From a virus (taxonomy: Duplodnaviria; Heunggongvirae; Uroviricota; Caudoviricetes): a stretch of 16,955 nucleotides of DNA. Under the pieces are notes generated by a model that did not search any database, had not been told where the DNA came from, and saw only the letters and a list, made by a program, of their open reading frames with translations. Made by a program: the position numbers and the translations under genes. Each line of letters begins with the position of its first letter. The stretch's first letter is position 1. The DNA lies in IMG/VR virus record IMGVR_UViG_2740892423_000028, positions 1-16,955 of that record; one strand, written 5' to 3'. Of this stretch, positions 1 through 14,174 are shown in pieces.

Positions 1-798
1 TTAATGAACATTCGTCGCCGAAAACGAGTCTGTATCATTAGCGTGATGCAGTCTCTGCAAAGGATCTTGTTGATAAAATTGACAGAAACGTTGCCACAAT
101 GAAGGGAAACGAGGAGCAAAAAGTTCTGGGGCGCTAAAGAAATATTCAGAAAGTACGGCAAAACATTCAGCAGGATCACTGGCAGCATAAGCATCAATGC
201 TCGCCGCATTCTCACCAACTAATTCGATTTCTTCCTGAATGTTGTTCATTGCAGCATGAAGATCGTGTTCCCAGCCAGCAACCTCACGCAACGAAATAAA
301 GGGAACTCCGCTGGCGCGATCGCCGTTACGGGTGTCCAGCTTATGAGCGACTTCATGAATAATCAGGTTAAAACCAGATGCATCAAAAGAATCTTGTATA
401 TCCAACCAGTTCAAAACGATAGGCCCTTGCTGCCAGCTCTGACCTGACTGAACAATACGTTGGTTATGCACCAGACCGATATCGTCTTCCCATTCATCAT
501 CGACCACAAATGGCGCAGGATAAATTAAGACTTCATGAAAACCATCCAGCCATTCCAGTCCTAACTCCAGAACGGGTAGGCAAAATAGAAGTGCTATCCG
601 GCAGCTTCTTAATGAATCCAGTTCAAAGCCCTGTAAAGGAACAAGCCGCTTTTGCTGTAAAAAACGTTCGGCAAGAGTGACTAATTTGCTTTGTTCCTGT
701 TCCGTCAGACCCGTTAAAAGGGGGATCGATAGTGCTTCCTGCCAGGGAAGGGCAGTTTGATGTGCTGATTCTTGTACTTTCCAGGGCCACTTAATCAT
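1..798 (-). CDS. mtfA: Mlc titration factor A (zinc-dependent peptidase MtfA), complete
   Basis: Translation from the internal Met reads [14 protein letters not shown]... with an HEVAH zinc-binding motif, 265 aa; the ATG was located as revcomp of cat at 796-798. The ORF-track entry 1..837 over-extends the N terminus by 13 codons. Stop TAA at 1-3 on the reverse strand. Confidence 0.9.
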
Positions 799-891
799 CG
801 TTTTGCTCGCAAACTCGTCACTTGAACAAAATTGCACGGACAGGGACTGTTAAAATGCCAAATTTCCTGACATCATGGCAACCATCTGAAC

Positions 892-981
892 GGAGAGATG
901 CCGGAGCGGCTGAACGGACCGGTCTCGAAAACCGGAGTGGGGGCAACTCCACCGGGGGTTCAAATCCCCCTCTCTCCGCCA
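892..981 (+). tRNA. serU: tRNA-Ser, anticodon CGA
   Basis: 90-nt sequence GGAGAGATGCCGGAGCGGCTGAACGG...CCGCCA with a long variable arm, anticodon loop CU-CGA-AA and 3' CCA; matches my recall of E. coli serU. The integrase lies immediately downstream. Confidence 0.9.
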
Positions 982-1026
982 AAATTCAATCACTTATACA
1001 TCATTAAGTCAGTGACAAAAATCACA

Positions 1027-1057
1027 CTTGGAATTACTTGGAATATTTTCTTGGAAT
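1027..1057 (+). repeat. Three direct repeats CTTGGAAT at 1027, 1037 and 1050; candidate arm-type integrase binding sites
   Basis: Seen directly; spacing 10 and 13 nt, between the tRNA 3' end and overlapping the integrase stop codon (the tandem copy also encodes the last residues of Int). Confidence 0.35.
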
Positions 1058-2059
1058 ATTTTCAGGTAACGGGACATCAAGTGTCGGTGAAACTTTAACC
1101 TTCCTGTCATAGATTAGCACTTGCCCCTCGGTTTTGTGACCAGAGAAAAGTTGCTTATCCCGACTGCTTCCTTCATAGTCTGAAATTCCTTTCGCCTTCA
1201 GATCATGAAAGGTGAAGTCGGTTAAAATACCTGAAATTTTGCCTGCGCGATTTCTTGCTTCTACCCACATTTCGTTAAAGCCTTTGTACATATATCGGTT
1301 GCCGTATTGATTGCTGATTACATAGGCGGATTTTGGTAACTGTTTTGCTTTTTCGATCGCCGCCTGTAATCGTGGACTCCATGCTTTTATCTGTTTTTTT
1401 CCTGTTTTCCCTTGCTGGATAAAGATCCCGTCGTTTCCAATCTGCTCCCATTTCAGCGATAACACATCGGAAACCCTCGCTGCACACAGATAGGCAATTT
1501 CCATTGCGATAAAAACAGGAAGAGGTGCAACGCTTAATACTGCCTGGTATTCTTTGTCGGTTACATATCGTTCGCGGTTTTTGGCCTTGAATTTACTTAC
1601 ACCTGCACATGGGTTAGCCTTCACGAACCCTCGCTCATACCCCCAACTGTAAACACGGGACATACTGCTTTTTTCATGGTTGGCTTGCGTTTTACTCTGT
1701 TCCCCTCTTTTGTCCATGTATCGACGGATGTGTTCTGGTTTTATGGAATCCGCTGGTACTTTACCGAATACGGCAAGCAACTTTTTTTGATGTTGCAGAT
1801 AATCTTTTTGTGTTCTTGGACTGAGGTCACTGTAATAGGCGCTGGCGAGGAATTTTTCCCACAAGCGACCGAATGTCATTGCACGATCGCGATTATTTAC
1901 AGTTTCCTCATACTTTTTCCATAAAGCAGCTAAACCATCCTTGATGGCGGTTAGTGTGACAGATTCTCTGGATGTTGGTTTCCATACATAACTATATTTA
2001 TTTGGGTATACATTTGGAGGTAATTTTTCGTGTTCAGGATTTTTCCTTCGTCTTCCCAT
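1034..2059 (-). CDS. Phage tyrosine integrase (site-specific recombinase)
   Basis: 341-aa ORF next to the tRNA, facing it; C-terminal H..R / H..Y-type catalytic region (FHDLKAKG ... SGHKTEGQVLIYDRK); start ATG overlaps the upstream gene stop by 1 nt. Confidence 0.9.
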   Translation of the reverse strand: MGRRRKNPEHEKLPPNVYPNKYSYVWKPTSRESVTLTAIKDGLAALWKKYEETVNNRDRAMTFGRLWEKFLASAYYSDLSPRTQKDYLQHQKKLLAVFGKVPADSIKPEHIRRYMDKRGEQSKTQANHEKSSMSRVYSWGYERGFVKANPCAGVSKFKAKNRERYVTDKEYQAVLSVAPLPVFIAMEIAYLCAARVSDVLSLKWEQIGNDGIFIQQGKTGKKQIKAWSPRLQAAIEKAKQLPKSAYVISNQYGNRYMYKGFNEMWVEARNRAGKISGILTDFTFHDLKAKGISDYEGSSRDKQLFSGHKTEGQVLIYDRKVKVSPTLDVPLPENIPRKYSK

Positions 2060-2262
2060 CAGATCGCACCAAAATTCGGCTCTACCTCGCGTGGTGGTAA
2101 AGTTTTATTGCAGGTAAATAGATCCCGGCTGACAATCGGTTTGCCACTACGATTGGTATAGAACGGAAGCCCGTTTTCCATTAACCATTTTCGCTGGTGG
2201 CTTGCATATTTGCAGCCCGTTAATATTAGCAATTCATCTTCGGTTAAAAATAAGCTGCTCAT
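2059..2262 (-). CDS. Excisionase-like small protein (possibly DUF4224-like)
   Basis: 67-aa ORF immediately upstream of and translationally coupled to int (TGATG overlap); the function is inferred from position only. Confidence 0.5.
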   Translation of the reverse strand: MSSLFLTEDELLILTGCKYASHQRKWLMENGLPFYTNRSGKPIVSRDLFTCNKTLPPREVEPNFGAI

Positions 2263-2320
2263 AGCTATATCTCATAACCGCCGCTAACTATATGCGGTTA
2301 GCGGCGATCAGGGTTGAACA

Positions 2321-4783
2321 TTAAAAATCAGCCTGATTCGGGATCAGTTTTTGCCAGATTGCTGAAACGTATTTTGCCTGGTGACGGGCGTCATCAAGTG
2401 CATTGTGGCGCACGCCTTCGAATGGAATAACGGTTCTGGCATCAAAGTCGATTGTTTTTCCCAGCTCAACGATTGTGCGTACATCGCGATCGTTGTGGTA
2501 GCGCCACGGGCAGGGGATGTCCAGACGTTCGTATGAGATGCGCAAAATTGCGTTATCGAAAGTTGCACCATTACCCCATACCTGAACGAATTTTTCATCT
2601 GAGTATTCGTTGATGAACTCCCGAAACTGCGAAAGGGCATCCTTCAGTTTTACCTGGTCTGTTAAAATGGCAGCTCTGGCTTCACTGGACTGCTTCAGCC
2701 ACCATTCGATGGTTCCACCGTCAGGAACAGCCCCTGTATTCATTGCGTCAGTCAGACTGATAACGATATAAAATACTGGCCCGATTTCCCCTGTTTGTGG
2801 GGCGAAGAAAACCGCACCAATAACCACGATGGGCGCATTGGTGTTGGTTCCCATTGTTTCAATGTCGATCATCAGGTGGTACCACACTCTGCTGGTGGAT
2901 GTGATAACGTGATGACCGTTCACCGCAATTAAGGGATCTGCCGTCCCGCCAGTTTCATTATCGCTGGCGTGGTCCTGAGCGCTGCCAGCATTCTCCTTGT
3001 GTGGATGTTCAGCGCCTTCCATTTCCTTCGGATCATTTTCCTGAACTTCAACCTGATTCTCTTCATCGAATGTTTCCTGGTATGTTGCGTCGCCCATCAC
3101 CGCGCCACAATCAGGGCAGTTGCCGCCACCGCTCTGACCGCAGGCGGTGCAGACTTTTTCCGCTTCCTGTTGCGCTACTGGCTCAGGTTGTTTCGTTTCT
3201 GGCTCGTTTTGTAACGCATTTTGGCTGTTTTGTTCCGCTTTCTGGTCGTTCTGTTCCGTTTCTTGCTGGTTCTGATTCACTGAATCGCGGGTTTCAATCC
3301 CCTTCACCCATTTCGGATCATTCGGGTCGCTAATCCCTGCAACAAATTCACCACGTGATACAGCAAGCAACTTATTGGCATCAGGCTGGTTGATATTGGC
3401 TGCCTGCATAATTTTGTTTACTTCGTCAGCGGTAACTTTTACCTGATTAACCGGATCTATCTGCGCCTGAGTATCCAGCGATTGCGTGTCCTGGCGATGT
3501 TCAGTTGTATCCGGCTCCATTGCTTCAGTCGTTGCCTGTTCATCTGCCATTGCGTCAGACGGTTGTGATTTTTCCTCATTATTTTTTTCTTCTTCTGTTT
3601 CGTGTTTAGCAGCAGCCAGTTCGCGGTTAACTTCTTCCAGGATATCTTTTTCCGGTGTATGTCGTGCAGCAGCGAGAGTTTCCTCGGTAGGATTCTCGTG
3701 ATCAGTCTCCGTTAAATTGGCGTTGATATACCCCTGAAGGCGTCCCGGGTAATGATAAAACTCAGGGTGTGCGCTCCGGATAAGTGCAAAAATAGCGGCA
3801 CGGGAATAATCCAGGATACCCGGGATTGCGCGAAGTGCTGCGGACCATTCTTTGAACGGACTTTCTTTCTTCCGGACGACTTCTTTTGCGCGACGATAAA
3901 CGCTGCCCGGAATTTCATAAATATTAAAATCCATCGGAAGTGTGGCTGCTGCAATCTCCACATCCAGCGTATCGAAGGTGTGTACTAAATTCGGATTGCG
4001 ATCGGTTTTGTTCCCGCCGCCAGCATTAGCACCGGAAGCCGTGCGGGTGATACGTGAAACACGATTTCCCTTCATCCACTCTTTTGTAAGCAGACCTCGA
4101 TCGGTGTAGTCAGCGCCCAGGTATGCTTCGAAAAAAGCGGTCATCAGTCCCAGGTCTGAATTACCAGGATTAGGGAAAACTTTGTCAGTGTCGCGTACCA
4201 GTTTGTGGAGATCGCGAATTTCCAGTGGTTCGAGTTGCGCTGCTTTATTTGAGATGGCCAGCGCGGTAACGGCGGGAAGTTTTTCATCCTGTGCGTTATG
4301 TAATGCGCGCAGTTCGTCCCGCGAAACGTGCGTGATCGGTTTTTCGCTGTTGTGTTGCGCCAGCCATCGAACAGGCAGAATCTGACCTGAAACTGGCAGG
4401 AGCATATTCTCCTCAATCTCAGTCATGTCTTCACCGTTGACGTTGGTATTGTCAGTGCTGGCTGGTTTGTCCTGAACAGAGGGCGCGATAAGTACCATTG
4501 TGATACCATCTTCCCCGCCTTTTTCGTATCGGTTGCAGAATTCGGTATCAAACACGCCTTCCGGAGGAAGGTCATTCACAACGGGTAAATGGACGCGAAC
4601 AGGTTTTTTAAAATCCTCTTCGTCAAATCCGGCATCGTCCATTGCGACAACACCGCGTGATATTGCAATCGATAATTTTTTTGCTGTGCGCCAGTAAAAA
4701 CCGCCTTTAATCCCAAGGCGTTTTCTGACTTTGTCATTTTTGGCTTCGTAATATAGTGCAATTTCTTCTTTATCAGCGCTCAT
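2321..4783 (-). CDS. Large phage exonuclease protein (YdfE / exodeoxyribonuclease VIII-like) with a C-terminal DEDDh 3'-5' exonuclease domain
   Basis: 820 aa; C terminus carries the Exo I-III motifs [20 protein letters not shown] and [13 protein letters not shown]; central CxxC...CxxC zinc ribbon ([16 protein letters not shown]); acidic/Gln-rich low-complexity middle; GAGG RBS 8 nt upstream of the ATG at 4783. Confidence 0.85.
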
Positions 4784-7583: not shown

Positions 7584-7662
7584 AAGTTCAATGATATTTA
7601 CTATTGAATGTACTGTCAGTTCTGTTATATTGTGTACTCAAGGTTCACATTGTGAGGGTGAT
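7584..7662. promoter_or_regulatory. Divergent immunity promoters and operators between the repressor and cro-like genes
   Basis: Rightward -35 TTGAAT (7604-7609), 16-nt spacer, -10 TATATT (7626-7631). Leftward -35 CTGACA (revcomp of 7614-7619), 17-nt spacer, -10 TATCAT (revcomp of 7591-7596) ending 7 nt before the repressor ATG with no Shine-Dalgarno. Palindromes TTGTGTACTCAA (7630-7641) and TCACA-T-TGTGA (7645-7655); GTAC core at 7610. Confidence 0.5.
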
Positions 7663-7929: not shown

Positions 7930-8464
7930 GCAGGCTCGCGAGGCTCTGGATGCCTGGGTATGCCGACCAGGAATGACGCAGGAGCAGGCGACGATATTAA
8001 TCACGGAAGCATTCTGGGCTCTGAAAGAACGCCCGAACATCGATGTTCATCGCGTCACGTTTGATGATGGCGCGGTTGATCAACGGGCGCTGGGCGTTAA
8101 CAGGGTGAAGATATTCGAACGCTGGAAAGCTATCGACACCAGGGATAAGCGTGAAAAATTCACGGCGCTGATTCCGGCAATTATGGAGGCTATCCGGATC
8201 AGCGATTTCAGGTTGTATTGTGAAATTACTGACGGAAAAAGCATTACGTACATGATCGCCGGGTTAAACAAAGAATATGGCGATGTGGTGGAGTCCGGGC
8301 TGCTTTTTGCGGATCCAGCTGTTGTGGAACGTGAGACTGACGAGCTTATAGAAAAAGCCATTGCTTTCAAGCGTGCGTATCGTCAGCAATACCAATATTA
8401 CTTTGCAGATAAACAAATGTCTGCCAGGGGTTCGTATGAGTATCGATGCACTACGATGGGCTAA
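7913..8464 (+). CDS. CII-like / YdaT-like protein
   Basis: 183-aa ORF overlapping the cro-like gene end; positional analogue of Rac ydaT and lambda cII. Confidence 0.6.
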   Translation: MIFTPEQAREALDAWVCRPGMTQEQATILITEAFWALKERPNIDVHRVTFDDGAVDQRALGVNRVKIFERWKAIDTRDKREKFTALIPAIMEAIRISDFRLYCEITDGKSITYMIAGLNKEYGDVVESGLLFADPAVVERETDELIEKAIAFKRAYRQQYQYYFADKQMSARGSYEYRCTTMG

Positions 8465-9890
8465 AAAGGTGAAAACCGGCAGTTCATCCAGTAAGTCAGT
8501 ATTGACCTGGCTTGCTGATATGTGCGGTGCCGATTTGTGTGCATACCCGTCTGTATCTGCACTGGCAGAAGTAACGGAGCTGAACAAAAAGACTGTGCAG
8601 GACAGCTTACGACACCTGATGGAGATTGGGTTAATTGTTGATACCGGTGAGAGAAAAGGCCGAACAAAGCAAATCGTAGTGTACCGACTTATCGGTGTAG
8701 AAGAAAGCGTTGCCGAGCCTGAATACACCCAAAAACGGGAGTCTTTAAAGGTGGGTAAAATTGGTACTGTTAATAAAAACAGTACCGAAAATGGTTATGT
8801 TTCAGCACAAAACAGCCCCAAAAACGGAACTCTTAGCTGCATGGAAAATAACCAAAGACACCCAAATTTTCCATCAAAGACACCCAAAAACGGATCACGG
8901 AACCCAAAGGAACCCAAAGATCTAAACCCCACACATAATGCACGCGAGAGTGCTCCGACCAGTGAGCAGGAAGTTTTGTCGTTACAGGCAGTGCCACCCG
9001 TATTCCTGGATGGCCTGAGCGAACCCATCGGAAAATTTCCGATGACCGATAGCTGGCATCCGTCACGGGATTTTCGACGACGGGCTGCGGTGTGGGGGAT
9101 GGCTTTGCCGGAGCCGGAATTTACACCTGCTGAACTTGCCGCCTTCCGGGACTACTGGGCAGCGGAGGGGAAAGTATTTACGCAGGTTCAGTGGGAGCAG
9201 AAATTCGCCCGTCACGTAAATCACGTCAGGGCGCAGGTTAAACCAGTCAGCAAGGGGGTGAGCCATGCAGCCGCACCAGGTGGCACCGCATCACGGGCAG
9301 TTCAGGAAATTCGGGCAGCACGTGAGCAGTGGGAACGTGAAAATGGATTTATCAGCGACGGAAACGGCGTGGAAGCTGTGGGAACTCATGGGGGAGGTTT
9401 ATTCGAACCGCTGGACCCAGAAGAACGGGGCCGCACCTNNNNNNNNNNGCTGGTCTGCCGCCAGTGCATGGACCGTTGCAGGGCAGGTGAAACATGGCCT
9501 CCGGACTTGGCTGAGTTTGTGGCGCTGATTTCGGAGAGCGGGGCAAATCCATTTGGTCTGACGGTGGATAACGTGATGGAGGAGTACCGACGCTGGCGCA
9601 ACGAGTCCTGGCGATACGACGGAAGCGATAAATACCCGTGGTCTCAGCCTGTGCTGTATCACATTTGTCTCGAGATGCGTTCAAAGGGGATTGAGCGCCA
9701 GATGACCGAAGGGGAGTTAAAACGGCTTGCAGAACGGCAACTGGCGAAATGGGCAAAGCATGTTGGTAACGGACTGAGTGTTCCACCCGTCCGTAGGCAA
9801 CTGGCAGCACCCATACGTCCTGCGGGACCAACGCCAATTGAGTTGCTGAAACAGGAATATGAACGCAGGAAAGCGGCAGGTTTTGTTTGA
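8436..9890 (+). CDS. Replication initiation / replisome organizer protein (N-terminal HTH, DnaT-like C-terminal region); interrupted by an assembly gap
   Basis: Starts at the ATG at 8436 overlapping the upstream stop (MSIDALRWAKKVKTG...); contains the N run 9439-9448, so the true length and frame continuity are unknown. Confidence 0.75.
   Translation: MSIDALRWAKKVKTGSSSSKSVLTWLADMCGADLCAYPSVSALAEVTELNKKTVQDSLRHLMEIGLIVDTGERKGRTKQIVVYRLIGVEESVAEPEYTQKRESLKVGKIGTVNKNSTENGYVSAQNSPKNGTLSCMENNQRHPNFPSKTPKNGSRNPKEPKDLNPTHNARESAPTSEQEVLSLQAVPPVFLDGLSEPIGKFPMTDSWHPSRDFRRRAAVWGMALPEPEFTPAELAAFRDYWAAEGKVFTQVQWEQKFARHVNHVRAQVKPVSKGVSHAAAPGGTASRAVQEIRAAREQWERENGFISDGNGVEAVGTHGGGLFEPLDPEERGRTXXXXLVCRQCMDRCRAGETWPPDLAEFVALISESGANPFGLTVDNVMEEYRRWRNESWRYDGSDKYPWSQPVLYHICLEMRSKGIERQMTEGELKRLAERQLAKWAKHVGNGLSVPPVRRQLAAPIRPAGPTPIELLKQEYERRKAAGFV
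9439..9448. other. Assembly gap (10 N)
   Basis: Run of exactly 10 n inside the replication gene. Confidence 0.95.
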
Positions 9891-9919: not shown

Positions 9920-10315
9920 ATGGCGAAACCTTTTACACCCGAACAGCGGGAAGAGCTGAAGGCACGAATTATCGGATTGGTACGCAAAAATGGACGCATG
10001 ACGATGTCGCAACTGGAGAGAGCGACGGGAGCAGGCTGGCATTCGGTCCGACGCTGCCTTGTGGATGTACTGGCTTGTGGTGATTTATACATGTCCGGGG
10101 AATACGGTGTTTTTGCATCAGAGCAGGCGTATCGTGAATGGCGTAAGACACCGGAGAAAACAACTGACCAGACGCTGATTCGGAAGTTACCAGACGGAGA
10201 GATACGCCGCTACGACAGGAGCCAGAACATAATCTGTCGCGAGTGCCGGAAGAGTGAGGTTATGCAGCGAGTGCTGGCGTTTTATCGGGGAAACTTTCAG
10301 GAGGTGATGGGGTGA
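9920..10315 (+). CDS. Hypothetical protein, possible winged-helix N-terminal domain
   Basis: 131-aa ORF with a GGGAGGG RBS; first gene of a translationally coupled block. Confidence 0.55.
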   Translation: MAKPFTPEQREELKARIIGLVRKNGRMTMSQLERATGAGWHSVRRCLVDVLACGDLYMSGEYGVFASEQAYREWRKTPEKTTDQTLIRKLPDGEIRRYDRSQNIICRECRKSEVMQRVLAFYRGNFQEVMG

Positions 10316-10611
10316 GGGTGAGAGTCTATATCGCCGGTCCAATGACCGGGTATAAAAATTTCAACCGTGAGGCGTTCCACAATGCGGAAGAGGAACTGAA
10401 ACGGGAAGGGCATACAGTCTTAAGCCCGGCAGTACTTCCGGACGGGCTGACACAGCCACACTACATGGATATTTGCATGGCAATGATTCGTTGTGTGGAT
10501 GCGATTTACATGCTGAAAGGCTGGCAGCGGTCAGCAGGTGCTAAGGCAGAACTGGCACTGGCGGAGAAACTGGGGCATGCAGTTATTTTCCAGGAGGCAA
10601 ACAGTGAGTAA
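10312..10611 (+). CDS. DUF4406-like / nucleoside 2-deoxyribosyltransferase-like small protein
   Basis: 99 aa starting MRVRVYIAGPMTGY...; GTG start overlapping the upstream stop (GTGA), CAGGAGG RBS; the YIAGPM-type N terminus is typical of the deoxyribosyltransferase-like fold. Confidence 0.6.
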   Translation: MRVRVYIAGPMTGYKNFNREAFHNAEEELKREGHTVLSPAVLPDGLTQPHYMDICMAMIRCVDAIYMLKGWQRSAGAKAELALAEKLGHAVIFQEANSE

Positions 10612-11068
10612 CCAATGGCGACCAGATATTTGTCCTATAACCGGACGTGCATTTTTCATGTGGATTGAGCATCCGAAATTGGGCAATGTGCCGACGTATG
10701 GCGGCCCATTAGACAGTTACACCATTCCAACAAAGGACAGCGATGGTGAGTTTTCGTGTGAGCGTTACGATCATGATTTCGGTGGCTGGGTAGAAAGCGA
10801 ATGTCTTGGGTTATATCTGATTGATGATAAAGAACAATGCAGAGTCTACGAACTCGAGGAACGCATTAAAGAGCTGGAAGCGCGGGAAGTTCATTTGCCG
10901 ACTCGCTACGGCCTTCGATATGGACATCCGATAAATGATGATGAGCGCCACGTCATGATACCTAAAGAAAATGGCTGCTGGCTTTATCTGGCTGACTTAG
11001 AACATGAACTACGTGTTGCTGGCATTCATATCAAAGGAGAGGAGTATGGAAATAAAACCAGAAGATGA
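10604..11068 (+). CDS. Hypothetical phage protein
   Basis: GTG at 10604 with an AGGAGG RBS 6 nt upstream; overlaps the previous gene by 8 nt; the ORF-track start at 10538 is probably too far upstream. Confidence 0.5.
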   Translation: MSNQWRPDICPITGRAFFMWIEHPKLGNVPTYGGPLDSYTIPTKDSDGEFSCERYDHDFGGWVESECLGLYLIDDKEQCRVYELEERIKELEAREVHLPTRYGLRYGHPINDDERHVMIPKENGCWLYLADLEHELRVAGIHIKGEEYGNKTRR

Positions 11069-11402
11069 GTTAAGTAATATTGTTTTATTTCCGGCAAAAG
11101 AGGATGACCCACGTAATCAGGTTAATTTTCTTTATGAGCCATCGGAAAGACCATATTGCCATCACGCCTCTGTCCGGGTTGACGAAAAAGAGCGTCAGGT
11201 CCGCTGTAAAATCTGCGGTGCAGTTGTGGAGCCGTTTGACTGGATGCTCTCAGTGGCGAAAAGAGAAACCAGACTGGCAGATGATGTAAGGCTATTGCGC
11301 CAGGAGGAACAGGAAAGACGGAAAAATATAGAAAAGTTAATTCAGATTGAGCGTAACGCGAAAGCGCGGATACGCAGGGCGACAAAATCCAGAACTGAAT
11401 AA
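11046..11402 (+). CDS. Hypothetical zinc-ribbon protein with a basic coiled-coil tail
   Basis: ATG at 11046 with a GGAG RBS; CHH...CKIC motif; the ORF-track entry starts at 11004. Confidence 0.55.
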   Translation: MEIKPEDELSNIVLFPAKEDDPRNQVNFLYEPSERPYCHHASVRVDEKERQVRCKICGAVVEPFDWMLSVAKRETRLADDVRLLRQEEQERRKNIEKLIQIERNAKARIRRATKSRTE

Positions 11403-12306: not shown

Positions 12307-12516
12307 ATGGCTATTGCCGCAAGTTACACCATGCATCTCTATTGTGACTGCCGCCAGTGTACGGAAGGTGTATATCCAGTGCCAGACTTCGGTGAGTATA
12401 TCGGTACGTCATGGTCTGGTTGTGCAAAAGAAGCCCGTAAAGACGGGTGGCGAATAAGTAAAGACAAAACACGTGCTTTTGCGCCCGGGCATAAAGTTTT
12501 GAGGATTAACAAATGA
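12307..12516 (+). CDS. Hypothetical small Cys-containing protein
   Basis: 69-aa ORF with an AAGGAG RBS. Confidence 0.5.
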   Translation: MAIAASYTMHLYCDCRQCTEGVYPVPDFGEYIGTSWSGCAKEARKDGWRISKDKTRAFAPGHKVLRINK

Positions 12517-12935
12517 CCACTACTACCAGAGAAAACGCGGAAATTAAATCATTCATCACTGGTTTCCTGAGCGACCCGGCGCACGATAACCAATCTTCAA
12601 GCAGCCTGCTTGCCAATGTGTTTCGTATCGCGCTGGCATCGCTGGAAGCAGAACCAGTTGCATGGACTGATGACGAGGAACTGCGAGATGTTGAGCAAAT
12701 TGGTTTAGGTTATTTATTACCTTGTCCTCCAGATAAATACGCAGACCCGCGTCGTGTAATTCCGCTGTATCGTGTGCCGCCAGCTCCCACAGTGCAGGCA
12801 CAGGGAATTGAGATCGCAATAAACGAACTGGTGTCTCTGTCCCCACAGCTGGATAAACGAGCGGTGGAAACTCTTTCTATGGCTGTGGCACATCTACGTA
12901 AACTGGTTAAGAAGCAGTTGCAGGTTAAGGAATGA
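12513..12935 (+). CDS. Hypothetical protein sharing an N-terminal module with the next gene
   Basis: 140 aa; contains RIALASLEAEPVAW ... PLYxxPPA; start overlaps the upstream stop (ATGA). Confidence 0.55.
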   Translation: MTTTTRENAEIKSFITGFLSDPAHDNQSSSSLLANVFRIALASLEAEPVAWTDDEELRDVEQIGLGYLLPCPPDKYADPRRVIPLYRVPPAPTVQAQGIEIAINELVSLSPQLDKRAVETLSMAVAHLRKLVKKQLQVKE

Positions 12936-12938
12936 CAC

Positions 12939-13682
12939 ATGAACGCTATCACCAAAGAACGTATTGAATTGTTCATTAAAAATCCGCTTGAAAACGGGCT
13001 TACTCGTAGCGAACAAATGGAAGTGGCACGGATTGCTCTGGCATCACTGGAAGCAGAGCCAGTGGCGTGGAAGGCAACCTTCACGCAAATTGACAATGAA
13101 TATAATACGTTCACTGCTCTGTATTCTGACAAAGTAGAAGCCGAACGGTGGGTGCGACTGCATGAAATAGGTGACTTTCGGGCAGAAATAACACCACTTT
13201 ACGCAGCGCCGCCAGCACAAGTGTTACCGAACGATGGGGTTGAGCTACTGGAAGAATTCGTCTGGACTGGTGAGGAATGGAGCGTGCCATTAACTGGCTC
13301 TGAACCAGAGGATGATGTCCCTGAATCGTTCTCTGCGAGTATCAGTGTTAGTTGTGCTGATGATGTTGAGGTGTGGGTATCAGTGCCGCCGTATATGATA
13401 ATTCCCTACATTGAAGGTGATCAGGATGAGGATTTATTTGATACGTGTGCTGGAGCATTACGTATATCGTTTCTGGATTTGCTAAAGGCGTATACAAGTT
13501 CGTGCATCAGAGAGGATGCGGGGGATGGTGTTTTATACATGGCTAATTTTTTCGAGAGAATGTCGAAAAGTCTTCGTAAATTTTATGGCACCCTTCCACA
13601 GGAGGAAATAGCTGCTGCGAAGGTGGATGTTGATCTGGTCATCCCGTGGGAGCGGGGAGGTCATGAGGAGGGGGATAAGTGA
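12939..13682 (+). CDS. Hypothetical protein with the same N-terminal module and an acidic C-terminal extension
   Basis: 247 aa; contains RIALASLEAEPVAW ... PLYAAPPA; AAGGAA RBS. Confidence 0.6.
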   Translation: MNAITKERIELFIKNPLENGLTRSEQMEVARIALASLEAEPVAWKATFTQIDNEYNTFTALYSDKVEAERWVRLHEIGDFRAEITPLYAAPPAQVLPNDGVELLEEFVWTGEEWSVPLTGSEPEDDVPESFSASISVSCADDVEVWVSVPPYMIIPYIEGDQDEDLFDTCAGALRISFLDLLKAYTSSCIREDAGDGVLYMANFFERMSKSLRKFYGTLPQEEIAAAKVDVDLVIPWERGGHEEGDK

Positions 13683-13972
13683 GCTGGCCTGAAGCATTCA
13701 CAACGGTAGGAATTGCGATGGCGGTGGCGCTGGTGGTGTATTCGATTTGCCGATGGGGATAAAAACGGTTTGCGGGAAAAGGAGAGTTAAGTAGAATTGC
13801 TGCGGGTGCTTGAGGCTATCTGCCTCAGGCATGAACACCAAAAGGCAGATAGAGAAAAGCCCCAGTTAACATTACGCGTCCTGCAAGACGCTTAACATTA
13901 ATCTGAGGCCAATCCATGCTGAACACATGTAGGTTAGCCTCTTACGTGCCGAAAGGCAAGGAGAAGCAGGCT

Positions 13973-14102
13973 ATGAAGCAGCAAAAGGCGATGTTAATCG
14001 CCCTGATTGTCATCTGTTTAACCGTCATAGTGACGGCACTGGTAACGAGGAAAGACCTCTGTGAGGTACGAATCCGAACCGGCCAGACGGAGGTCGCTGT
14101 CT
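13973..14102 (+). CDS. hok: Hok/Gef-family type I toxin (HokD-like), 3' end lost in an assembly gap
   Basis: MKQQKAMLIALIVICLTVIVTALVTRKDLCEVRIRTGQTEVAV... matches my recall of HokD/RelF; AAGGAG RBS; the last ~9 codons fall in the N run 14103-14112. The ORF-track read-through to 14143 is an artefact. Confidence 0.8.
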
Positions 14103-14112
14103 NNNNNNNNNN
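14103..14112. other. Assembly gap (10 N)
   Basis: Run of exactly 10 n inside the hok gene. Confidence 0.95.
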
Positions 14113-14174
14113 AGGCGAGGGAGAAATCCCTCGCCACCTCTGATGAGTCAGGCATCCTCAACGCACCCGCACTT

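Follow-up and report, generated by a model that had tools for sequence, protein, structure and literature searches.

A mosaic ren/nin-type stretch in a Rac-type Escherichia coli prophage and its DUF4406 protein, a predicted nucleotide N-glycosidase-like enzyme

In the rightward delayed-early operon of phage lambda, the stretch between the replication genes and Q holds ren and ninB to ninI, small accessory genes of mosaic distribution that join one another through stop/start overlaps of 4 to 34 nucleotides (nt). We analyzed a comparable stretch, positions 9920 to 11402 of a viral DNA of 16,955 nt (IMG/VR record IMGVR_UViG_2740892423_000028; this whole piece of DNA is called the window), in which four small overlapping genes, referred to here as genes 1 to 4, follow the replication gene P. 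They occupy the same position in the operon as lambda ren-nin, are likewise accessory and mosaic, and have a Ren-like gene as the first after P. Unlike the lambda genes, they are not homologous to nin genes, save for a Ren-like C-terminal motif, and the replication module of the window is of the Rac type (YdaS/YdaT and a DnaT-like O) and not lambda O.

The closest described relatives of the gene 2 product, a member of the DUF4406 family, belong to the nucleoside 2'-deoxyribosyltransferase (NDT) superfamily, whose defining feature is a Tyr/Asp(Asn)/Glu triad and whose nucleotide-specific members have small uncharged residues in place of the Asp/Asn that holds the 5'-OH (PMC12884076). One phage member, DmtZ, acts on dAMP (PMC12884076); its genes, found in phages with Z genomes, show linkage to dutZ/purZ, in contrast to DUF4406, which lacks a fixed neighbor. 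The NDTs proper (PF05014; for example, Trypanosoma brucei NDT, PDB entry 2A0K, and Lactobacillus leichmannii NDT) are the best structure and profile matches of DUF4406, with a nearly identical strand 1 (KIYIAGP) in the T. brucei enzyme, but DUF4406 has a Ser for their 5'-OH-binding Asp and scores under the cut-off of the Pfam NDT model. The nucleoside 5'-monophosphate N-glycosidases DNPH1/Rcl and MilB/BcmB resemble DUF4406, as judged from sequence and a structural model, in a Rossmann-like core, a strand-1 Tyr and an S-x-G-x3-E motif. They are longer, however (130 to 175 amino acids [aa] versus 95 to 100 aa), with C-terminal helices and a strand that DUF4406 lacks; single-sequence and shallow searches detect no significant sequence similarity between the two groups, and the triad Asp is placed in DUF4406 without certainty. 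On the evidence set out below, we consider it probable that genes 1 to 4 are accessory genes independent of one another in a mosaic ren/nin-type stretch and that gene 2 encodes a DNPH1/MilB-like enzyme.

Overlap and inheritance of the four genes

The RefSeq annotation of a prophage in E. coli C311 (NZ_CP062204) contains four coding sequence calls matching genes 1 to 4, and since protein-level homologs exist in other species, all four are genuine coding genes. The 4-, 8- and 23-nt overlaps described in an earlier, sequence-only reading of the window can be read directly from the DNA, and the RefSeq twin agrees with them: the TGA stop of gene 1 (10313-10315) overlaps the GTG start of gene 2 (10312), the TAA stop of gene 2 (10609-10611) overlaps the GTG start of gene 3 (10604), and the TGA stop of gene 3 (11066-11068) lies beyond the ATG start of gene 4 (11046). 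Each start is preceded, at a distance of 6 to 8 nt, by a Shine-Dalgarno sequence (GGGAGGG, AGGAGG, AGGAGG and AAGGAG for genes 1 to 4, respectively). For gene 2, an alternative GTG start at 10318 would replace the 4-nt overlap with a 2-nt gap; it agrees with the N terminus of most homologs (MK[IV]YIAGP), and its Shine-Dalgarno spacing is worse.

The overlaps are thus real but not above the local background. Seven of the 17 junctions in the rightward operon of NZ_CP062204 overlap, including YdaS/YdaT, YdaT/O, O/P and RusA/Q. In phage lambda, 9 of the 10 junctions from O to Q (O-P-ren-ninB...ninI-Q) overlap, with lengths of 4, 4, 4, 4, 34, 4, 11, 4, 23 and 4 nt, the sole gap being that between ren and ninB, and the products comprise a replication initiator, a helicase loader, Ren, a recombination mediator, a PAPS (3'-phosphoadenosine 5'-phosphosulfate)-reductase-like protein, a junction endonuclease and a Ser/Thr phosphatase. 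Because these lambda overlaps join functionally unrelated genes, we regard overlap as the packing syntax of the operon and not as a mark of common function.

The distribution of the genes argues in the same direction. A megablast search of 5,426 complete E. coli genomes found gene 1 in 2,940 genomes (475 at ≥80 % of gene length), gene 2 in 1,223 (about 23 % of these genomes), gene 3 in 332 (complete in 77) and gene 4 in 1,679 (about 31 %). Genes 2 to 4 occurred together in 75 genomes and the whole four-gene block, at ≥80 % coverage, in only 12. Most gene 3 matches of less than full length fall within genes annotated as ead/Ea22-like, including some on plasmids of about 95 kb, and the gene 3 slot is polymorphic, with many alleles. 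From evenly spaced rows of the search with genes 2 to 4, we estimate that about 670 E. coli records carry another Ea22-like allele between DUF4406 and gene 4, about 370 carry DUF4406 without gene 4, and about 900 carry gene 4 without DUF4406.

Individual loci illustrate these combinations. In EDL933, P is followed by DUF1627, a 106-aa helix-turn-helix (HTH) protein, DUF4406 and DUF4752, with DUF4406 unaccompanied by genes 3 and 4; in strain 05-3629, an HTH protein, DUF4406 and DUF7167 stand together, again without genes 3 and 4; and in CFT073, gene 4 comes directly after DUF977, the family of gene 1. Among the 74 IMG/VR prophage contigs in which gene 4 is nearly identical and sufficient DNA lies upstream of it, DUF4406 lies nearby in 22, and in most DUF977 is immediately upstream of gene 4.

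Across species, co-occurrence is close to zero. We surveyed 65 loci encoding a DUF4406 relative, one genome per species, from Enterobacterales, Vibrio, Aeromonas, Shewanella, Thalassospira, Alicyclobacillus, Actinomycetes and others, and found gene 1 near DUF4406 in three, gene 3 in two and gene 4 in two. One of the 65 lies on a contig resembling E. coli within a mis-binned metagenome-assembled genome; in the other 64, the numbers are two, one and one. The 116 immediate neighbors of DUF4406 fall into 93 clusters, and among the neighbors in these 64 loci no recurrent Pfam partner was found, only a mixed assortment of nin-type genes and genes for phage replication.

The matches themselves tend to end where the genes end. 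Many DNA matches to DUF4406 stop at base 286 of 300, and those to gene 4 begin 28 nt before its ATG. Such coincidence of match edges with gene edges is the classical signature of lambdoid mosaicism. In the scenario we propose, the four genes, which lie in the ren/nin-equivalent stretch between O/P and hok/sok, DUF968, RusA and Q and each have their own ribosome-binding site, would be cotranscribed from the cro-side promoter, and recombination at gene edges would exchange each slot independently.

The sequence-only reading had instead taken the overlaps to imply one co-translated module. In such a module, for example one for nucleotide processing or counter-defense, translational coupling would set the stoichiometry of interacting proteins. 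That the overlaps are real fits this idea, and so does the linkage of DUF4406 and gene 4 in E. coli, which also speaks against independent inheritance: about two-thirds of E. coli DUF4406 records carry gene 4 within 1.1 to 1.5 kb (estimated from spread rows), and in an estimated 700 to 750 records a middle gene that varies separates DUF4406 from gene 4. At ≥90 % DNA identity, however, this linkage can be explained by shared descent. Rare fused open reading frames (ORFs) in other genomes, joining DUF4406 to gene 3, an Ea22 head to gene 4 or the gene 4 N terminus to DUF977, could likewise be cited for a module, but they comprise one or two member sequences each, or four contigs, with junctions resembling frameshifts or deletions; because they are rare and look like such derivatives, we did not count them as functional linkage. 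Against a module stand the 12 of 5,426 genomes with the full block, the unequal prevalences, the fact that gene 4 mostly occurs without DUF4406, the differing combinations in EDL933, 05-3629 and CFT073, the lack of any recurrent neighbor across species, where DUF4406 almost never accompanies the other three genes, and the identical overlap syntax between unrelated lambda genes. The sequence-only reading had itself named a failure to co-occur elsewhere as grounds for refutation, and the gene distribution largely refutes the module, which we now regard as very improbable; co-inheritance of the four genes is absent. The earlier statements on the family and fold of gene 2 have stood, as has the picture given of gene 4, whereas the step from overlap to function has not.

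As independent accessory genes, the four make up an ordinary mosaic, and they already bear their family labels in RefSeq. The value of the locus is mostly negative, as a warning against inferring a functional module from stop/start overlap in the early operons of phages. The remaining interest lies in DUF4406 and gene 4, both very common in E. coli, either of which could prove to be a nucleotide-pool or host-takeover factor.

Fold, conserved residues and predicted activity of the DUF4406 protein

The assignment of gene 2 to DUF4406, first made from the sequence alone, is secure: the protein matches Pfam PF14359 with 127.6 bits (cut-off, 22; E = 2.4e-37) over profile positions 2 to 91 of 91. 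It also matches PHROG 355, which is named nucleoside deoxyribosyltransferase. The family is large, with 17,204 representatives of 50 % clusters, and occurs in 310 phage genomes from many hosts, usually among replication genes. Stand-alone DUF4406 proteins of about 120 aa from Arthrobacter and Pseudomonas phages are listed in GenBank as "MazG-like pyrophosphatase," "deoxycytidylate deaminase" or "nucleoside deoxyribosyltransferase," so that the names transferred by homology are inconsistent. We had considered the "MazG-like" and "dCMP deaminase" records as possible domain fusions, but they proved to be these stand-alone proteins; a search of 20 long DUF4406 members (214 to 358 aa) for a second Pfam domain found none.

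The proposed relation to deoxyribosyltransferases held at the level of the fold. An AlphaFold2 model of gene 2 (predicted local distance difference test score, 87; predicted template modeling score, 0.81) has a Rossmann-like core of the order beta1-alpha1-beta2-alpha2-beta3-alpha3-beta4. In a Foldseek search of the PDB with this model, the top 29 matches, with template modeling (TM) scores of about 0.65 to 0.75, were all NDT, DNPH1, MilB or a related Enterococcus faecalis protein; the CMP N-glycosidase BcmB, of the same activity as MilB, was also matched, at a TM score of about 0.7. A single-sequence search of PDB chain sequences gave no match, and a shallow profile gave chance matches only. 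A diverse profile built from 53 DUF4406 members reached T. brucei NDT (2A0K) with an E value of 0.002, and also the DUF1937 protein 1T1J, Leishmania mexicana NDT and MilB/BcmB.

In the profile alignment, the family consensus kiYiaGP falls on KIYIAGP of T. brucei NDT, and S-a-G-a-r-a-E falls on D-C-G-T-A-F-E of the NDT and S-P-G-T-H-V-E of MilB. Y6 of gene 2 (in VYIAGP) thereby aligns with the strand-1 Tyr of 2A0K; it is invariant in the enterobacterial set, and a few distant members have F or M instead. In the superfamily, this Tyr orients the Glu and keeps out ribo-substrates, the Glu nucleophile stands at the beginning of helix 3 within a (D/S)xGxxxE motif, and the third triad residue, Asp or Asn, is on helix 2. 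E80 aligns with the catalytic Glu of T. brucei NDT and MilB and is invariant both in 30 and in 53 sequences, and S74 aligns with the Asp of NDTs and the Ser of MilB. In human DNPH1, whose sequence we validated against PDB chains, S98-x5-E104 has the same spacing as S74/E80. Among the 53 DUF4406 sequences, down to 33 % identity, the invariant residues are G9, P10, F22, L68, W71, S74, G76 and E80. We read gene 2, on this alignment and the model, as a minimal member of the NDT/DNPH1 superfamily, with Y6 and S74-x-G76-x3-E80 and no fixed partner.

Following the logic of the superfamily analysis (PMC12884076), a Ser at the 5'-pocket position together with E80 and Y6 points to an N-glycosidase of (deoxy)nucleoside monophosphates (dNMP/NMP) or a phospho-deoxyribosyltransferase. 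By analogy, gene 2 most likely encodes a stand-alone deoxynucleotide N-glycosidase, its substrate, residue roles and biological role being predicted from its relatives. In this scenario, E80 would act as the nucleophile on the sugar C1' and Tyr6 would position it, while S74 would sit where the small residue of MilB/DNPH1 makes room for the 5'-phosphate. The enzyme would cleave the N-glycosidic bond of 2'-deoxynucleoside 5'-monophosphates, or transfer deoxyribose-5-phosphate, and its activity may alter the composition of the nucleotide pool, or cleanse it, while the phage replicates its DNA. The prediction of a stand-alone dNMP N-glycosidase-like enzyme is cheap to test.

Several points weigh against this assignment. 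D53 (in YMDIC) is invariant among enterobacterial members but not family-wide, and the profile alignment sets it two residues off the Asn that is the third triad residue of T. brucei NDT. With 95 to 100 aa, DUF4406 proteins are without the C-terminal elements that complete the NDT active site from the neighboring subunit. The alignment program hhalign gave no meaningful alignment of the shallow DUF4406 profile with the single human DNPH1 sequence, nor with L. leichmannii NDT, the latter in an unvalidated sequence; because these comparisons with single sequences gave nothing, the equivalence of residues depends on a single weak profile alignment together with inspection of the motifs. The literature names DUF4406 only incidentally, with nothing functional.

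Two other activities have to be weighed. If DUF4406 were a true NDT, exchanging bases between deoxynucleosides for salvage, the name carried by PHROG 355 and many GenBank phage records would be correct, and it would be natural that NDTs are its best fold and profile matches and that the triad Tyr and Glu are present. Yet the NDT Asp that binds the 5'-OH is an invariant Ser here, a residue shared with MilB and DNPH1, which hydrolyze nucleotides; PF05014 gives gene 2 13.4 bits, below its cut-off of 28.8; and the NDT names were transferred by homology, other records having "MazG-like" or "dCMP deaminase" in their place. We therefore think a true NDT unlikely. A counter-defense or exclusion factor that hydrolyzes or sponges an immune or redox nucleotide (nicotinamide adenine dinucleotide [NAD+], ADP-ribose-derived or other signals) seems to us quite improbable. 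It would suit an accessory gene in an early operon beside a Ren-like gene and a very large, phage-borne family; some retrons have NDT-like effectors that act on NAD+, and dAMP depletion is the proven escape of phage T5 from Kongming, though via a phosphatase. DUF4406 has no PADLOC match, however, no tie to defense or anti-defense genes in the 65 loci and no literature support, and its invariant Glu favors catalysis over sponging. An NDT-type anti-Kongming factor was considered as a precedent and dropped, the paper showing that the factor is T5 Dmp, a phosphatase.

The zinc-ribbon, Ren-like and Ea22-like genes

Gene 4 had been described as a zinc ribbon with a basic helical tail, and this is borne out by its homologs and its model. 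Its match to PHROG 1621 (function unknown there) has an E value of 1.7e-56; a match to the Pfam TFIIB zinc ribbon stays below cut-off. Gene 4 has 150 homologs. The zinc ligand set is of the CHCC type (C38, H40, C54 and C57) and invariant. The AlphaFold model consists of a small beta-hairpin ribbon and a single helix of about 55 residues, and a fold search with it returned nothing significant, the best match being a TFIIB zinc ribbon (E = 0.36). The basic helix (residues 63 to 117) contains the near-invariant LRxEExxRRxNIEKLIQIERNAKARIRR, kept down to 44 % identity. In Serratia, Erwinia, Yersinia and Pluralibacter, the C-terminal helix NIEKLIQIERNAKARIRR is almost invariant, though the homologs are 44 to 60 % identical overall. 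This helix is the strongest constraint in the four-gene block and is accounted for by no fold or family. Our guess is that the partner bound by gene 4 is probably nucleic acid or else a host protein that is conserved. In a PADLOC search with the four-gene proteins, gene 4 gave the sole match, at chance level.

The 28 nt before gene 4 (11018-11045), which comprise the 3' end of gene 3 and the Shine-Dalgarno sequence, accompany gene 4 into contexts without gene 3; the equivalent in CFT073 is intergenic. This segment looks like a conserved boundary or linker used in mosaic recombination.

A wider possibility, which we put forward as a speculation with little expectation that it is correct, is that DUF4406 is a widespread unrecognized phage tool acting on the nucleotide pool, a DNPH1-like N-glycosidase that blunts nucleotide-based defenses, with gene 4, which has the nearly invariant basic helix, as a second, independent host-targeting factor. 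A protein of about 95 aa would then break down certain dNMPs, or else nucleotides that are damaged, modified or precursors of immune signals, acting as T5 Dmp does against Kongming by dAMP removal; alternatively, it would act in the lysogen and exclude superinfecting phages.

The identities of genes 1 and 3 had been overlooked. Gene 1 belongs to the DUF977 family (PF06163; E = 2.9e-65) and is a Ren-like protein in the ren position: it matches PHROG 142, "Ren-like exclusion protein" (E = 6.6e-45), its C terminus matches that of lambda Ren in BLASTP (E = 3e-7 over 39 residues), and it lies directly after P, which is the ren slot of lambda. It has a winged-helix N terminus and a conserved C-terminal motif, ECRxSxxMxRVLAxY. 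In the literature, DUF977 receives incidental mention at most.

Gene 3, with 812 homologs, gave no match in a Pfam search, PF13935 included, yet it is 71 to 93 % identical to residues 115 to 259 or thereabouts, the C-terminal two-thirds, of ead/Ea22-like proteins (233 to 270 aa). Full-length members of that family carry an N-terminal PF13935 coiled-coil head. Since gene 3 begins exactly at the boundary between head and body, it is a headless Ea22-like protein, homologous to the body only. It differs from the family also in its location in the rightward operon; lambda ea22 lies in the early-left/b region. None of the four proteins matched in an NCBIfam search.

Prophage setting of the four genes

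The window covers the left half of a Rac-type lambdoid prophage from E. coli. The prophage in E. coli C311 is 98 % identical to it and has a matching layout in its RefSeq annotation. A tRNA-Ser(CGA) gene adjoins an ORF in the integrase position, and together they probably form the attachment end of the prophage, so that the window would begin at the junction of prophage and chromosome. Features are listed in Table 1.

Table 1. Positions of the four genes and of other features in the window
Feature	Positions	Strand	Remarks
tRNA-Ser(CGA) gene	892-981	+	Adjoins ORF in integrase position
ORF in integrase position	1034-2059	-	341 aa
DnaT-domain replication protein and P, read as a single ORF	8361-9890		509 aa; fused by masked run of 10 N at 9439-9448
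Gene 1, DUF977/Ren-like	9920-10315	+	131 aa
Gene 2, DUF4406	10312-10611	+	99 aa
Gene 3, ead/Ea22-like body	10604-11068	+	154 aa
Gene 4, zinc ribbon and basic helix	11046-11402	+	118 aa
sok antitoxin RNA	13804-13978	+	Rfam match, 118.6 bits
Hok/Gef-type toxin ORF	13916-14143		Overlapped by sok RNA
Second masked run of 10 N	14103-14112		Breaks hok ORF

Past the ORF in the integrase position, the leftward arm is of the exonuclease/dicB type. Divergent promoter-like sites lie at 7591-7631, between a minus-strand ORF for an HTH repressor and the rightward genes. A promoter and terminator scan of 9920-11402 gave no site above shuffle expectation, and an Rfam scan of the same positions gave no match. 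The rightward operon begins with a cro-like regulator, a YdaT-like protein, a DnaT-domain replication protein (O) and P, the last two being separate genes with an 8-nt overlap in NZ_CP062204. The four genes come next, followed by several small genes, hok/sok, DUF968, RusA and a Q-type antiterminator. The sok RNA and the Hok/Gef ORF form a hok/sok type I toxin-antitoxin locus within the nin-equivalent region.

Downstream of the four genes, the adjacent ORFs 12513-12935 and 12939-13682 have a common N-terminal motif, IALASLEAEPVAW. Their heads are duplicated or related and their bodies different, as in modular small proteins.

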